A stretch of 64,000 nt of DNA from an uncultured Bacilli bacterium. Its GTDB lineage: Bacteria > Bacillota_I > Bacilli_A > RF39 > UBA660. Below the pieces are notes generated by a model, which made no database searches, was not told the origin of the DNA, and saw nothing but the letters and a program-made list of their open reading frames with translations. The position numbers and the translations under genes are program-made. The first letter of the stretch is position 1. Each line of letters begins with the position of its first letter. The stretch is taken from positions 1,194,940 to 1,258,939 of the forward strand of contig OZ007038.1 of NCBI GenBank assembly GCA_963931685.1, written 5' to 3'. Shown here piece after piece: positions 28,013 through 38,788 of the stretch.

Positions 28013-28064
28013 TGGTGGTTTCGGACAGAATCGAACTGCCGACACAGGGATTTTCAGTCCCTTG
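28013..28064 (-). pseudogene. displaced 3' fragment of the original tRNA-Phe (positions ~25-76 incl. CCA)
   Basis: Reverse strand CAAGGGACTGAAAATCCCTGTGTCGGCAGTTCGATTCTGTCCGAAACCACCA; homology stops abruptly at 28064. Confidence 0.85.
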
Positions 28065-28197
28065 TTGTCTATTTTAATTATATTTAATATTTATACTCAT
28101 TTATCTATAAACCGTTATATTGTATACTATTTTAACTAGATTAAATTTTTGATTAAAATAAATGATTTTAAATAAATTTAATGTTTTTAATGATGTT

Positions 28198-28243
28198 TTG
28201 TCCACGTTTGTCCATAAAATTTTAGTAGAACTTTTTGTCCACA
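28198..28243 (+). repeat. three TTGTCCAYA motifs (left arm of island)
   Basis: TTGTCCACG 28198-28206, TTGTCCATA 28208-28216, TTGTCCACA 28235-28243. Confidence 0.7.
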
Positions 28244-28325
28244 AATCACCGTTTTTCAAAGAACATATATATAATATCACAAAATAAAATCACTATGCAA
28301 TACATTTAACAAAAAAAAGTGGATT

Positions 28326-30087
28326 TTTGTTACTATTCACAGCCTAGAGTAGACAATGAAAGTATCTAGTAAAAATAACTAGGTACTTTTTTACTGTGGA
28401 TAAAGTGGTAAAAACCGTTGGAAAATAAGGGAAAAATCATGATTTAGGTATTGCAAGTTTCATCTTATTTTGATATATTGAATATAGTAAAGGAAGTAAG
28501 ATATATATGCCACTAAAATCAAATTATTCTAATCAATTATTTAATGACTATCAAAAACTAGAAATAAAAAATAAAAAATTAAATATGGAAATTAAAACTT
28601 TAAGATTAGAAAAAAGCTTGTTAAAAGATGAATTAAAAAAACAAAGAGATGAATTAGATGAGAAGAATAAAGAAATTGCTAGATTAAAGTCATTACTTAA
28701 TAATGACGGAACTAATAGTGGCATTTCTACTAGTAAAACTCCTATTAATAAAAACAAAGTTATTCCAAATAGTAGGAAAAAAAGTGGCAAAAAGATAGGC
28801 GAACAAAAAGGTCATAAAAAACATAAATTAGAAAGATTTAAAGATGAAGATGTTACAGAAGTAGAATATATTGAAATGGATAGATGTCCAAATTGTAATC
28901 ATGAATTAATAGATACTAATGAAACTATTGATAAAGATGTTTTGGATTATGAATTAGTTGTGGTTAAAAAAAGAATAAAATTTAAAGAATACAAATGTCC
29001 TTGTTGCGGAAAAAAAATACATTCTAAAATACCTAATGAGTTAAAAGAAGATGTTCAATATGGACCAAATGTAAAATCATTAGTTTTATCATTATTAAAT
29101 GAAGGATACATATCAATTAATAGGGTTAAAAGAATTATTAAAGGATTAAGTCAAGGAGATATAGATTTAAGTGAAAGTTATATAGCTAAAGTACAAAAAG
29201 TAATGTCTGAAAAACTAGATGATTTTAAGCAAGAGGTAACTAGAGAACTTTTAAAAAGAAAATTATTGTATTGGGATGATACAGTAATATTTGTTGATAA
29301 GAAAAGAGCTTGTTTAAGATTTTATGGTGATGAGAAAATAGCTTTATATGTATCACATAAGCAAAAGAACAAAGATGGTCTTGATGAAGATAATATACTA
29401 AAAAATTTAAGTAATCATACAAAGGTAATGCATGACCATAATAAAGTAAATTATAATGAAGAATATTCATTTATAAATTTAGAATGTAATGCCCATCTAC
29501 AAAGAGACTTACAAAAAGTGATAGATAATTTAAAAGCTGATTGGGCCACAAGGTTAAAAACATTAATATCTGAAAGTATTAAACAAAGGAACAAATTTAT
29601 AGAAAACAACTATACTTATAACGATGAATTTAGTAATAACTTCTTTGATAAATTTAATAAAATAATGTTATCAGCCATAGATGAAAACAGAAATAGAGAA
29701 AGTGTTTTTTATAAAGATGAAGAAAAGACATTAATACAAAGGATATTAAATTATAAAGACAACTATTTTGCATGGATAGCAGATTTTACATTACCGACAA
29801 CAAATAATTTATCTGAACGTTCACTTAGATCTAGTAAAACCAAACAGAAAGTATCTGGGCAATTTAAGAATATTGATAGAGCTATGGATTATGCCAATAT
29901 AAAGACATACATAGAGACCAGTTACAGAAATGGTATAAATCCTATGTATGCACTATTTAGACTATCAATAGGTGCCCCCTTTACTTTAGATGAAATTTTG
30001 AACAATGAAAAATTAAGCGAAGAAAAATAGCGAATATCTCCGCTATTTTTAAGTGCCTTTATTTATTAGGCTGTGAATAGTAACAAA
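28326..30087 (+). mobile_element. IS66-family insertion sequence (third, divergent element)
   Basis: Inverted ends TTTGTTACTATTCACAGCCT (28326-28345) and AGGCTGTGAATAGTAACAAA (30068-30087); no clean TSD seen. Confidence 0.7.
28507..30030 (+). CDS. IS66-family transposase (with zinc-finger block)
   Basis: Coiled-coil N-terminus, CPNCNHEL...CPCCGKK zinc finger, C-terminal TNNLSERSLRSSKTKQKVSGQF...GINPM. Confidence 0.85.
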   Translation: MPLKSNYSNQLFNDYQKLEIKNKKLNMEIKTLRLEKSLLKDELKKQRDELDEKNKEIARLKSLLNNDGTNSGISTSKTPINKNKVIPNSRKKSGKKIGEQKGHKKHKLERFKDEDVTEVEYIEMDRCPNCNHELIDTNETIDKDVLDYELVVVKKRIKFKEYKCPCCGKKIHSKIPNELKEDVQYGPNVKSLVLSLLNEGYISINRVKRIIKGLSQGDIDLSESYIAKVQKVMSEKLDDFKQEVTRELLKRKLLYWDDTVIFVDKKRACLRFYGDEKIALYVSHKQKNKDGLDEDNILKNLSNHTKVMHDHNKVNYNEEYSFINLECNAHLQRDLQKVIDNLKADWATRLKTLISESIKQRNKFIENNYTYNDEFSNNFFDKFNKIMLSAIDENRNRESVFYKDEEKTLIQRILNYKDNYFAWIADFTLPTTNNLSERSLRSSKTKQKVSGQFKNIDRAMDYANIKTYIETSYRNGINPMYALFRLSIGAPFTLDEILNNEKLSEEK

Positions 30088-30485
30088 TTTTCCCTATCTT
30101 TTTGCAAATCTTCTTGACTTTGATTATATTTTTTTAGTTTTTTTCTATCCTCTTCATTAACTAATTCATCACTAAAAATATATTTTATATAATTATCAAT
30201 TATTGGCTTGTTTATTCCAACTGCATCGCATAAACTAAGTAACCTTTGTTCTTCTGCTTGTTGTTTTGCTTTTATCTCTTTGTTTCTTTGGGCTAATTCT
30301 AACTCTCGCTGTTTAGTTTGTCTTTCTTGTTCTAATAATGCTTGCTGTTGTAATAATTTATTTTGTTCTTCCAAAAGTTTATTTTGAGTTTCTTGTTGTT
30401 CGTACCTATTATCAGCAGCTATCATTTGATCAACTATATCCATACCATTGTCCGTCTTTTCCCCTAAATAGTCCCATAACTTCAT
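30066..30485 (-). CDS. coiled-coil protein (3' end fused into the IS66 terminal repeat)
   Basis: 139 aa, Q/E/K-rich heptad-like centre; last codons and stop lie inside the IS right end; 4-nt overlap with the upstream gene. Confidence 0.5.
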   Translation of the reverse strand: MKLWDYLGEKTDNGMDIVDQMIAADNRYEQQETQNKLLEEQNKLLQQQALLEQERQTKQRELELAQRNKEIKAKQQAEEQRLLSLCDAVGINKPIIDNYIKYIFSDELVNEEDRKKLKKYNQSQEDLQKDRENLLLFTA

Positions 30486-31012
30486 TTCTCCTTATTTAAT
30501 TTATTAATTGAAATAACATTACTCATAGTCTTAATGTACTCTATTAAAGCTTTGTCAGGTTTAGAAAACTCCATTCCAACAATAACTGTGATACCATGAT
30601 TTTTTAAACTATATAATGATTCAAATAATGCTTTCTTATCTGTTTTAGCTTCTTCTAATAAAACAAACGAATCAATTACTAATACCTTAATATTTTTCTC
30701 TTTGATGGTATTAATAATGTCTTTTATACCGATTTTTGAATTATCCACAACATAAATATTATCTAATGTTAAATTTATATCTGAATAAGTTTTTGCTCGT
30801 TTAATTATGTAATCACTTTTACTTAATAATGATATAAACATTAGTTTATTTTTTTTATCAAGTTCATTGATTAACTTTAATAATAACCTAATTAACCCCT
30901 GATCTTTATTACTATATACCACTGTAATATTATTTATAATATTATCCAAAGGTGGTATATAATCTGCCATTACCGCTTGCCGGCTTGTAATGGTGGTTAT
31001 TTTATTTGTCAT
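30482..31012 (-). CDS. small RecA/KaiC-fold-like protein, no Walker A (paralog 2)
   Basis: 176 aa; VLVIDSFVLL (Walker-B-like strand) and HGITVIVGMEF; aligns with 31027-31524; no GxxxxGK(S/T). Confidence 0.4.
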   Translation of the reverse strand: MTNKITTITSRQAVMADYIPPLDNIINNITVVYSNKDQGLIRLLLKLINELDKKNKLMFISLLSKSDYIIKRAKTYSDINLTLDNIYVVDNSKIGIKDIINTIKEKNIKVLVIDSFVLLEEAKTDKKALFESLYSLKNHGITVIVGMEFSKPDKALIEYIKTMSNVISINKLNKEK

Positions 31013-31026
31013 TTAAAACACACTCC

Positions 31027-31524
31027 TTATGTAATCACCATTCCTCCCAAATTTTCTACGTACATTATTATTTCATCAATACAGCTTAATTCTGAATTTA
31101 TAATTATAGTTATTCCTTGCTCGCAAATATAATGTAATAAACTAAATAGTTCTTCATAGTTATGGTTAAGCAAAAGCTGAAACTCATCAATGACTAATAT
31201 TTTGCTGTTAGTTTCATTAACCATTTTCATTATAGATTCAGGTTTTATATTATCTATATCTTCATAAACAATGTTTGTAGACTGGATTATATCTAAATTA
31301 GCTTTAGTACTGATGTATAAAATTGGATAACTTTTACACAGTAACTTAACTAAATTTATAAATACTGATTTTTTATAATTTTCATATTCGCCAAAAATAA
31401 AAGTAATATGATTTATAATGGTATCTAAATCATAAACATAATTTTCATTTAATACATCTTTTGACTCCAACAGACAAGCTGATCCTTTATAAGAACTTAC
31501 AGTCTTTTTTGATAATGCTTTCAT
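31027..31524 (-). CDS. small RecA/KaiC-fold-like protein, degenerate Walker A (paralog 1)
   Basis: ATG 31524 after GAGGGAG; FGEYENYKKS in the P-loop position, ILVIDEFQLL Walker-B-like, QGITIIINSE. Confidence 0.4.
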   Translation of the reverse strand: MKALSKKTVSSYKGSACLLESKDVLNENYVYDLDTIINHITFIFGEYENYKKSVFINLVKLLCKSYPILYISTKANLDIIQSTNIVYEDIDNIKPESIMKMVNETNSKILVIDEFQLLLNHNYEELFSLLHYICEQGITIIINSELSCIDEIIMYVENLGGMVIT

Positions 31525-38382: not shown

Positions 38383-38407
38383 CTATGGACAGAAAATTTA
38401 TGGACAA
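38365..38407 (-). repeat. three TTGTCCAYA-type motifs (inverted orientation)
   Basis: TGTGGACAA 38365-38373, TATGGACAG 38384-38392, TATGGACAA 38399-38407. Confidence 0.7.
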
Positions 38408-38439
38408 AAAAATCAATACAACTTTAAGAAGTATTGATT
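38404..38439 (-). terminator. rho-independent terminator after island-borne tRNA-Phe
   Basis: Minus strand AATCAATAC-loop-GTATTGATT followed by TTTTTTT. Confidence 0.7.
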
Positions 38440-38452
38440 TTATTAACTAAAA

Positions 38453-38528
38453 TGGTGGTTTCGGACAGAATCGAACTGCCGACACGAGGATTTTCAGTCC
38501 TCTGCTCTACCGACTGAGCTACGAAACC
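38453..38528 (-). tRNA. tRNA-Phe(GAA), intact, island-borne
   Basis: GGTTTCGTAGCTCAGTCGGTAGAGCAGAGGACTGAAAATCCTCGTGTCGGCAGTTCGATTCTGTCCGAAACCACCA; anticodon stem GAGGA/TCCTC, versus AGGGA/TCCCT in the split copy. Confidence 0.93.
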
Positions 38529-38643
38529 ATGATAGTGGTTTTTATCTATTTTTCTCATCAAATAATCCCCACTAAATAATAAAATGAAATTGTATAAATT
38601 AATCAATATTTAGACAAATAATGAAAAATAAATAAAGTAAATT

Positions 38644-38663
38644 TTGTCCATACTTTGTCCACA
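38644..38663 (+). repeat. two TTGTCCAYA motifs (right arm of island)
   Basis: TTGTCCATA 38644-38652, TTGTCCACA 38655-38663. Confidence 0.7.
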
Positions 38664-38745
38664 GACTAAATTTATACAATTTCCTTTCTATATAAAGCCC
38701 ACTTAAATATAAGGTATTTCTTATATTTCGATAGAATTTAGGGTA

Positions 38746-38788
38746 GAGGATTTTCAGTCCCTTGCTCTACCGACTGAGCTACGAAACC
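38746..38788 (-). pseudogene. displaced 5' fragment of the original tRNA-Phe (positions 1 to ~41)
   Basis: Reverse strand GGTTTCGTAGCTCAGTCGGTAGAGCAAGGGACTGAAAATCC, then unrelated sequence. Confidence 0.85.

Follow-up and report, generated by a model that had tools for sequence, protein, structure and literature searches.

The DNA analyzed here (hereafter the window) comprises 64,000 nucleotides of contig OZ007038.1 from an uncultured Bacilli bacterium, has a G+C content of about 26%, and encodes spore-coat proteins, together with a minus-strand cluster of tRNA genes that hosts two adjacent accessory elements. One of these elements, an island that splits the host tRNA-Phe gene in its anticodon stem-loop and carries a complete tRNA-Phe gene of its own, is the subject of this work. 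The low G+C content and the spore-coat genes point to a spore-forming, Clostridia-like gut bacterium with a small genome as the host. ARAGORN detected 14 tRNA genes in the window, 12 of which were counted in the cluster. These genes follow the order Val, Thr, Gln, Tyr, Gln, Lys, Leu, Ser, Met, and Asp at 39696–38794, continue with the tRNA-Phe(GAA) of the island, and end with Arg and Pro at 27838–27679, in agreement with Rfam. From its downstream junction, the island consists of approximately 260 bp of non-coding DNA, an IS66-family insertion sequence (IS), three small genes encoding proteins of 139, 176, and 170 amino acids (aa), an IS6-like element, five paralogous genes, and the complete tRNA-Phe gene, which is co-oriented with the broken one and separated from the upstream junction by 219 nt of non-coding DNA. 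The coordinates of all these features are collected in Table 1.

Table 1. Features of the island and its surroundings (positions refer to the window).
Feature	Position	Strand	Remarks
Inserted island, 10,683 bp	28065..38747	.	absent from conspecific L001, L004, and L005
Host tRNA-Phe 5' fragment, positions 1-41	38748..38788	-	attL-like upstream junction, directly after tRNA-Asp
Host tRNA-Phe 3' fragment, positions 25-76 including CCA	28013..28064	-	followed by host hairpin 27983-28001
17-nt common core, copy 1, CAAGGGACTGAAAATCC	38748..38764	-	5' anticodon stem, loop, and 3 nt
17-nt common core, copy 2, CAAGGGACTGAAAATCC	28048..28064	-	downstream, attR-like junction
Island tRNA-Phe(GAA), complete, GAGGA/TCCTC stem	38453..38528	-	ARAGORN; Rfam 70.4 bits; cloverleaf minimum free energy -25.1 kcal/mol
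AT-rich hairpin and U-run directly after island tRNA	38402..38445	-	-11.1 kcal/mol, z = -4.6; likely terminator
Sigma-70 consensus promoter of host tRNA cluster, TTGACA-17-TATAAT	39721..39749	-	perfect consensus
Three TTTTGTCCAY boxes	28198..28241	+	134-177 nt inside downstream junction; first two 10 bp apart
Two TTTTGTCCAY boxes	38644..38661	+	87-104 nt inside upstream junction; 11 bp apart
Three more boxes, one of them the variant TCTGTCCAT	38367..38407	-	inverted, on the far side of the island tRNA; one in duplicated upstream region
IS66-family element, 507-aa transposase (28507-30030)	28326..30087	+	perfect 21-bp inverted repeats
Three small genes, 170/176/139 aa	30066..31539	-	first two: degenerate KaiC/RecA-like ATPase paralogues
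IS6-like element, 477-aa DDE transposase (31732-33165) with N-terminal zinc ribbons	31547..33311	+	inverted repeats GGTAGTGTGAATAGTTT / GATAGTGTGAAAAGTTT
Duplicated region of ~125 nt upstream of paralogue array	33340..33461	+	second copy 38262-38382
Five-paralogue array	33455..38202	-	37360-38202, 36772-37281, 35266-36168, 34363-35241, 33455-34321
IS200/IS605-family TnpA	36263..36700	-	Pfam Y1_Tnp 1e-41; NCBIfam transpos_IS200; between paralogue 3 and short paralogue
tRNA-Pro element, 10,637 bp	16998-27634		integrase 26506-27603; repeats 16938-16997 / 27635-27694

Insertion into the host tRNA-Phe gene

The host gene is found as two fragments at the borders of the island. The 5' fragment (GGTTTCGTAGCTCAGTCGGTAGAGCAAGGGACTGAAAATCC, read from 38788 to 38748 on the minus strand) comprises the acceptor strand, the D arm, the 5' strand of the anticodon stem (AGGGA), the loop (CTGAAAA), and the three nucleotides TCC, and is directly followed by the non-tRNA sequence TCTACCCTAAATTC. 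The 3' fragment (CAAGGGACTGAAAATCCCTGTGTCGGCAGTTCGATTCTGTCCGAAACCACCA, from 28064 to 28013 on the same strand) is preceded by ...AAAATAGACAA. Both fragments contain a 17-nt core that corresponds to tRNA-Phe positions 25–41 and occurs exactly twice in the 64 kb (chance expectation 0.01), the sole additional match with two mismatches allowed being located inside the island tRNA-Phe. At attL, identity to the gene stops 3 nt past the anticodon loop, where TCTACCCTAAAT follows. The junctions read GAGCAAGGGACTGAAAATCCTCTACCC (attL) and AATAGACAACAAGGGACTGAAAATCCCTG (attR), and the predicted attP is AATAGACAACAAGGGACTGAAAATCCTCTACCC. No tRNA was called at either junction by ARAGORN or Rfam, and no cloverleaf fold was obtained for the attL RNA.

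Contigs of the same species were recovered through the exact sequence of an S1-domain protein encoded beside the tRNA cluster (39739–40116). Two of them (L002 and L011) carry the island with 100% identity to the window. In L001, the tRNA-Phe gene is uninterrupted and the neighboring tRNA-Pro element is present, while L004 and L005 are devoid of both elements; thus, the two elements were acquired independently. A 601-nt in-silico join of the window flanks through one copy of the core is 100% identical to the sequence of the island-free contigs L004 and L001 and, therefore, the two tRNA-Phe fragments are halves of one gene. In both contigs, this gene is located 5 nt downstream of tRNA-Asp, is intact with an AGGGA/TCCCT anticodon stem, and is identical to positions 1–41 and to the 3' part preserved at the island borders. 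Moreover, BLASTN of the empty-site contigs against the window placed the breakpoints exactly at the copies of the core.

The complete tRNA-Phe of the island is the only intact one found by ARAGORN in the window. It coincides with the host tRNA at 72 of 76 positions, and the four differences constitute two compensatory pairs of the anticodon stem, namely 27–43 (A–U in the split gene, G–C in the island) and 28–42 (G–C and A–U, respectively). Since these two pairs differ, the 17-nt core is no longer present in the island copy, which has two mismatches to it. As regards expression, no terminator was found between tRNA-Asp and the island tRNA, whose 3' end is directly followed by the hairpin and U-run listed in Table 1, a structure not picked up by a terminator scan that requires GC-rich stems. 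This arrangement suggests that read-through from the cluster promoter should transcribe the 5' fragment together with the island tRNA-Phe, delivering the replacement as the last member of the operon, and that the hairpin now likely terminates the host tRNA transcription unit. The island tRNA may also have its own promoter, as a weak promoter-like site is present at 38617–38589. Downstream of the island, tRNA-Arg and tRNA-Pro probably form a separate transcription unit, judging from the hairpin at 27983–28001 and a promoter-like site at 27902–27874.

A first-pass annotation of this locus had already proposed that the element destroys its target tRNA and supplies a full copy instead of restoring only the 3' end, and the intact gene of the empty sites, the two junctions lacking a tRNA, and the complete tRNA of the island bear this out. 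The same holds for the 3' part that it placed at 28013–28064, the 17-nt overlap in the anticodon stem-loop, which is an exact repeat, the failure of either junction to regenerate a tRNA, the complete and well-folding copy with its own terminator about 220 bp inside the junction, and the two compensatory swaps. The 5' part, assigned to 38746–38788, is indeed a tRNA-Phe fragment, although its boundary lies at 38748. That annotation also called for an alignment with island-free relatives, stating that a GAGGA/TCCTC gene at the empty locus, or fragments that were not collinear halves of one gene, would speak against it. The alignment with L004 and L001 revealed the opposite in both respects: an AGGGA/TCCCT gene with which the two fragments are collinear.

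The non-coding ends of the island share a further feature. The motif TTGTCCA has 16 matches in the 64 kb, about half of which are concentrated in the non-coding ends of the island (approximately 730 bp). The five boxes closest to the junctions have the same orientation, the consensus TTTTGTCCAY, and a distance of 10–11 bp between neighbors. According to their sequence and arrangement, these boxes are putative arm-type sites of a lambda-like tyrosine integrase.

Island genes and mobile components

The only genes of the island with a role in transposition or recombination encode the IS66-family, IS6-like DDE, and IS200 transposases. A tblastn search with eight tyrosine and serine recombinases from the window and related loci gave no match in the island, while the same search did detect the integrase of the tRNA-Pro element and a recombinase near position 50,000. 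The earlier claim that no tyrosine or serine recombinase remains, and that only three IS transposases are present, is thereby confirmed. From this, the island had been considered immobilized, which is reasonable given the lack of an integrase; however, mobilization by an integrase acting in trans is conceivable, as the putative arm boxes and the two copies of the core have been preserved intact. The search for relatives carrying the same island with an integrase, which the annotation had recommended, recovered none. The 477-aa DDE protein was also considered as the integrase of the island and rejected, since IS6-type repeats directly flank its gene and its 90% identity cluster is widespread (114 members on many contigs), the exact protein being found in this island only.

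The inverted repeats of the IS6-like element resemble the ends of IS26 and IS257. No 8-bp target duplication was found at this element or at the IS66-family element, and the last codons of the 139-aa open reading frame (ORF) are derived from the right inverted repeat of the latter. The missing duplications and this IS-supplied gene end suggest IS-mediated deletions, which could have removed an integrase module. Phage structural, lysis, and immunity genes were not found in the island, where PHROGs gave only weak ATPase and transposase matches, and no relatives of the island were found in IMG/VR and INPHARED. IMG/VR searches with a profile of the paralogues and with the 176-aa protein did not retrieve relatives either, and the 176-aa protein had no phage match. 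Look-ups of the exact proteins of the island genes returned only the same island, from a single study.

The 170-aa and 176-aa proteins share 28% identity and a weak similarity to KaiC/RadA-like ATPases. Their homologues, at 70–95% identity, are located in other integrated elements, none of them at tRNA-Phe, which contain a tyrosine integrase (L030 and L035–L040) or a large serine recombinase (L026). The genes for the 170- and 176-aa proteins thus represent a backbone module of integrative elements, and the presence of these homologues beside integrases supports the view of the island as the leftover of a larger integrative element.

The main cargo of the island is the array of five paralogues, one of which (169 aa, 36772–37281) is short and consists of the C-terminal domain only. 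Splitting of a paralogue by the IS200 element was rejected, as the alignment places this element between two paralogues. No Pfam, NCBIfam, or PADLOC family matched these proteins. The family is rare (39 relatives), and its members occur singly in mobile or defense contexts, beside HTH regulators, a methyltransferase/helicase pair, or recombinases; look-ups of homologues of both the paralogues and the ATPases led to other mobile contexts, none at tRNA-Phe. The AlphaFold model of a paralogue (pLDDT 86.5) has two domains. In Foldseek, the C-terminal domain matches ASCH, the N-terminal domain of McrB, VcaM4I, PD-T4-3, and MspJI, with E values from 2e-6 to 1e-3 (5gus/5y6c ASCH, approximately 2e-6; 6n0s McrB-N, 1.6e-4; 6yex VcaM4I, 1.4e-3), so that the model displays the PUA-superfamily (ASCH/EVE/SRA-like) reader domain characteristic of type IV enzymes. 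The N-terminal alpha/beta domain contains invariant residues E62, C87, and D90 and could be assigned neither to a sequence family nor to a specific nuclease fold. Because the modeled C-terminal domain matches reader-domain folds, the paralogues are predicted to be modification-dependent (type IV-like) restriction enzymes. They resemble VcaM4I, MspJI, PD-T4-3, and McrB-N in this ASCH/PUA-like fold and in the mobile and defense contexts of their relatives; however, they differ from these enzymes in the lack of a sequence-family match and in the unusual occurrence of five copies in tandem. The duplicated region, about 125 nt long and containing one TGGACAAAA box, precedes the paralogue array in its copy at 38262–38382 and the 170/176/139-aa genes in its copy at 33340–33461, with the IS6-like element now in between.

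Other insertions at tRNA-Phe

A second example of this organization was found by scanning metagenomes with AGAGCAAGGGACTGAAAATCCD, a pattern in which the 5' half of tRNA-Phe is followed by a non-native base. Most matches were intact tRNA-Phe genes with a G·U stem pair, and only two loci, L067 and L065, were informative. L067 and the matching locus L070 are found on human gut contigs (ORLW01001374 and PETE17-1_SAMN04329776 scaffold_1012). In L067, tRNA-Val and tRNA-Asp are followed by a 5' fragment of tRNA-Phe that ends in ...CTGAAAATCC and continues with TCGTTTCC; in both L067 and L070, the fragment breaks at the same base as in the window (...AAAATCC, then TC). A complete tRNA-Phe with a GAAGA/TCTTC stem begins 56 nt after the fragment in L067 and precedes a U-run, three direct repeats of ATTAGGGTAT, and the element genes, which encode an HTH_36 Rep-like protein, a sortase, and a 1506-aa SpaA-type adhesin. 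Thus, L067 has the same layout as the window, although the two differ in host species, spacer, tRNA variant, arm repeats, and cargo. Three of the four differences visible between the element tRNA and the host tRNA in L067 (43 comparable nucleotides) are in the anticodon stem, which, although limited to two examples, is suggestive of a deliberate absence of the att core from the replacement gene. The Rep-like protein of L067 had no relatives in IMG/VR, and only its N-terminal HTH domain matched proteins on plasmids.

Further motifs are shared between these loci. In L067, an inverted repeat (AAAATCGTGTAAAAAT at 2601–2616 and ATTTTTACACGATTTT at 2700–2716) brackets the element tRNA-Phe and is followed by the U-run; likewise, the island tRNA of the window lies between TGGACA boxes of opposite orientation. 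The heptamer TAGGGTA has two occurrences in the window for six expected, one of which directly abuts the attL core (38739–38745), and also constitutes the three direct repeats beside the element tRNA in L067 (2780–2815), which may be a coincidence or reflect a common binding motif. Just past the loop, TCCTC is found in all three attP-type sequences (window, L067, and L065), TCCCT being the sequence of the host genes; the shared TCCTC has the appearance of a core-type half-site that was conserved or of a remnant of the 3' half of a tRNA. The L065 sequence (approximately 1110–1147, minus strand) is a near-perfect palindrome, AGAGCAAGGGA-CTGAAAA-TCCTCTGCTCT, located between two ORFs and outside any tRNA. 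With 22 nt identical to tRNA-Phe and the TCCTCT half-site shared with the attL of the window, it may represent a decoy, the scar of an excision, or a site resembling attP.

Orphan 3' fragments of tRNA-Phe with the same CAAGGGA boundary are present in metagenome-assembled genomes (MAGs) of Clostridium (L042), Chitinivibrionales (L041, 2886–2940), and Candidatus Ruthturnera (L043, approximately 7093–7115); those of L041 and L043, together with one on a metagenome contig (L057, 1076–1150), start in the 5' strand of the anticodon stem. The occurrence of such fragments in unrelated genomes identifies this part of tRNA-Phe as a common recombination site, and integration into this region is, on the sequence evidence, phylogenetically widespread. 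In L042 (CAMMLJ010000005.1, 4700–5000), the fragment is preceded by two repeats of TAGTGTGTCA and, farther upstream, by the gene of a CHAP-domain lysin, with a SocA/Panacea gene on the same side. About 120 bp downstream, 20 nt of the tRNA 3' end are present a second time, a trace of another integration, of the T-loop type. The arm repeats thus differ among the window (TTGTCCA), L042 (TAGTGTGTCA), and L067 (TAGGGTAT) and, therefore, the three elements probably did not share a common integrase.

Pattern searches beyond these loci were negative. The exact attL/attP pattern CAAGGGACTGAAAATCCTCTA had no match among GTDB species representatives, a 19-nt attP-type pattern had one chance match in IMG/VR, in a coding region of a high-GC phage, and BLAST of the tRNA and junctions against INPHARED returned only generic tRNA-Phe genes of large lytic phages. 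As regards the backbone of L067, cotJC, a gene encoding a Mn-catalase spore-coat protein, is disrupted in several Clostridia contigs (L072–L081, e.g., L073 at 9159–10001 and L078 at 147–5325) by an element that is widespread in the gut and encodes an HTH_36 Rep-like protein, a sortase, a SpaA adhesin of 1602 aa, and a primase. The cotJC locus of L078 harbors, in addition, a second, nested element that codes for a ToxN toxin and a large serine recombinase.

Known systems, origin of the island, and neighboring elements

The closest known parallel is tRNA-dependent lysogeny (Guerrero-Bustamante and Hatfull, mBio 2024; PMC10865867), described in actinobacteriophages such as Fionnbharth (cluster K4), LeBron (L1), and Gaia (X). 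These phages use tyrosine integrases and cores of 8–17 bp in tRNA genes (17 bp in LeBron), with arm-type sites flanking the phage cores; the tRNA is not rebuilt, and a phage tRNA of the same isotype is required (PMC10865867). Experimental proof was provided in 2024 for actinobacteriophages only, and the authors ask how common the strategy is elsewhere, naming the Lactobacillus johnsonii prophage Lj965 as a possible case outside Actinobacteria (PMC10865867); later papers mention rhizobial prophages. The island has an attachment site at the anticodon loop of a tRNA gene, a 17-bp core without a rebuilt tRNA, putative arm sites, and an intact tRNA-Phe(GAA). However, it has neither an integrase of its own nor phage genes, is not a temperate phage, and carries defense-type cargo, and its host is a low-GC spore-forming Firmicute in which tRNA-Phe is the target. 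Moreover, the Fionnbharth tRNA is provided with a separate promoter and overlaps gene 37 on the opposite strand, whereas the island tRNA is co-oriented with the host cluster immediately inside attL and is 95% identical to that of the host, every difference being in the att core region. By analogy, the island would work like this kind of lysogeny, at best as a decayed member or a variant. Regarding Lj965, the papers that cite it (PMC10865867, PMC3714127) describe a Firmicute element that does not rebuild the tRNA and carries a cognate tRNA, as in the island; according to the same citing papers, it differs in being a prophage with four tRNA genes.

The island also shares with classical tRNA-integrating elements a conservative recombination in a tRNA gene, direct repeats at the ends, and a tRNA cluster as a hot spot. 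In such elements, of which the tRNA-Pro element with its 60-bp repeat, a tRNA-Lys prophage in L003, and the orphan fragments of L041–L043 are examples in the present material, attP carries the tRNA sequence from the crossover to the 3' end, so that one junction is intact. In contrast, identity in the island ends shortly past the loop, no junction is regenerated, and no integrase is located at the tRNA-proximal junction. Elements using the anticodon-loop sublocation were reportedly described by Williams in 2002. Cis-mobilizable elements (CIMEs) are flanked by att sites, lack recombination and transfer genes, and derive from integrative and conjugative elements (ICEs), as in the ICESt1/3 family of Streptococcus thermophilus. 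The island resembles them in its two intact att sites, the lack of an integrase and of recombination or transfer genes, and a backbone related to integrative elements. However, the species of the island yielded no cognate ICE that uses its att site; elements with the same core boundary are found in other species (L042 and L067), with different arm repeats. To our knowledge, CIMEs do not carry replacement tRNAs.

We consider it likely that the island is a decayed site-specific integrative element of tRNA-Phe, equipped with a built-in replacement tRNA, whose tyrosine integrase has since been lost. The element would have entered the host gene by conservative recombination across a 17-bp core centered on the anticodon loop, the anticodon stem-loop being the usual location of tyrosine-integrase att sites in tRNA genes. 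Since its attP would have had just these 17 bp in common with the gene, neither junction rebuilds the tRNA, and the replacement tRNA would take the last place in the host tRNA transcription unit. As the recoded stem removes the core, the tRNA of the element would not be a target itself. The recombinase would most likely have been a tyrosine integrase with an arm-binding domain and the phased TTTTGTCCAY boxes its arm sites. The integrase gene would have been lost later, probably through an IS-associated deletion, with which the IS66 and IS6-like elements lacking duplications are compatible, leaving a non-autonomous island flanked by att sites with a cargo of predicted modification-dependent restriction enzymes.

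Several points weigh against this interpretation. Neither an integrase gene nor a pseudogene is present in the island, and the class of the recombinase is one that we infer. No relative of the island with an integrase and the same att site was recovered among GTDB representatives or by the IMG/VR patterns, and no circular attP junction was seen. The boxes match the DnaA box TTATCCACA at 7–8 of 9 positions and could serve another role. The ends of the insertion sequences, and hence the missing duplications, are not set by comparison with other copies, of which the window holds none. The dependence of the host on the island tRNA-Phe is putative and is judged within the 64-kb window. Finally, in other genomes, relatives of the L067 backbone have a protein-coding gene, cotJC, as their insertion site, which is more typical of serine recombinases.

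This last point leads to the possibility that the same logic was executed by a large serine recombinase. Enzymes of this type often insert within genes without restoring them, one is present at a cotJC locus interrupted by relatives of the L067/L070 backbone (L078), and the 170/176-aa module is also found in the L026 element, which ends with a 510-aa serine recombinase. However, a crossover centered on the 7-nt anticodon loop with its inverted stem is the classic geometry of tyrosine integrases, and phased direct repeats at 90–180 bp from the core on both arms, seen also in L067 and L042, are a hallmark of arm-binding tyrosine integrases that serine integrases do not require. Considering that tblastn revealed no remnant of a serine recombinase in the island and that all experimentally shown cases use tyrosine integrases (PMC10865867), a serine recombinase appears unlikely. 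There is a comparably small chance that the island never had a recombinase and is a satellite or cis-mobilizable element that depends on a helper phage or ICE, whose integrase would recognize the same tRNA-Phe core and act in trans. Such a role would be in line with cores and putative arm boxes that remain intact without an integrase, with the use of the same core boundary by other elements such as L042, and with occupied and empty sites within one species. Nevertheless, the three insertion sequences, the IS-supplied gene end, and the backbone modules found beside integrases elsewhere point to the decay of a larger element, and the arm repeats of the window, L042, and L067 differ, so that a common integrase is improbable.

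Two other explanations are much less credible. If the island had been inserted as a composite transposon, or by the transposase of the IS6-like or the IS66 element, the 17-nt repeat would be a target-site duplication; this would account for three transposase genes, no integrase, and an insert flanked by direct repeats. However, members of the IS6 and IS66 families generate 8-bp target duplications, the inverted repeats of each IS are internal to the island, and no terminal inverted repeats are found at 28065 or 38747, so that the 17 nt were rejected as a transposon target duplication on account of both their length and the island ends. Furthermore, tRNA-Phe is interrupted at exactly this nucleotide by an unrelated element of a different species, and the orphan fragments share this boundary, which argues for sequence-specific recombination and makes transposition highly improbable. 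The intact tRNA-Phe could alternatively be a junction rebuilt by an earlier classical integration, with the present arrangement produced by tandem insertions or rearrangement, given that tandem arrays are common at tRNA genes, that this cluster hosts at least three different elements, and that TCCTC just past the loop at attL fits the island-type stem. Nonetheless, the intact gene is preceded by 219 nt that belong to the island and not to the host, and L067 repeats the layout with another spacer and stem. Moreover, the empty-site gene has an AGGGA/TCCCT stem within flanks of 100% identity and, thus, the GAGGA/TCCTC gene cannot be a hybrid of host and element. The empty sites largely refute this explanation, which retains only a marginal probability.

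The decayed integrative element that we favor, together with L067/L070, indicates that the strategy known from phages is also used in low-GC gut Firmicutes, on tRNA-Phe, and by non-phage elements. Since the principle has already been published for phages, the finding is less novel than it first appeared; the new aspects are the non-phage nature of the element, the placement of the replacement within the operon, and a near-identical tRNA with a recoded core. Tentatively, and with less conviction than for the origin of the island itself, these non-phage elements of gut Clostridia (the island and the L067/L070 adhesin/sortase element) might represent an undescribed class of "tRNA-dependent integration". 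In such a class, a near-exact, co-oriented replacement tRNA placed directly inside attL would inherit operon transcription, while its recoded stem would confer immunity to the integrase. With a single tRNA-Phe gene in a small genome, imprecise deletion could not remove the island, an addiction that would preserve its restriction cargo. If the host has no other tRNA-Phe, the island would be locked in despite the loss of its integrase, which would explain the persistence of a decayed defense island. On the practical side, tools that delimit islands by a rebuilt tRNA and a 3'-end repeat will miss or mis-delimit such elements, and tRNA annotation will silently list the island copy as a host gene. 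In addition, the recoding of the att core in the replacement tRNA provides a testable design rule for integration vectors.

The tRNA cluster hosts other elements as well. The tRNA-Pro element is flanked by a 60-bp direct repeat, uses the 3' end of tRNA-Pro as its site, and encodes a 365-aa tyrosine integrase with an arm-binding domain 76 bp from this tRNA. Its adjacency to the island had led to an estimate of 21.8 kb of accessory DNA in one tRNA operon; the two elements are indeed adjacent, but their total is approximately 21.3 kb, and "tRNA cluster" is a safer term than operon. An action in trans of the tRNA-Pro integrase on the island is unlikely, as L001 has this integrase and an empty tRNA-Phe site, and the ends of the tRNA-Pro element, which have no TTGTCCA clusters, argue against it too. 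In another strain, a prophage with a 373-aa integrase occupies the 3' end of tRNA-Lys in the same cluster (L003, 10866–12202), rebuilds tRNA-Lys, and supplies its own terminator, being the third kind of element that uses this cluster. Outside the island, a further tyrosine-recombinase-like coding region was detected by tblastn on the minus strand of the window at approximately 49998–50285.

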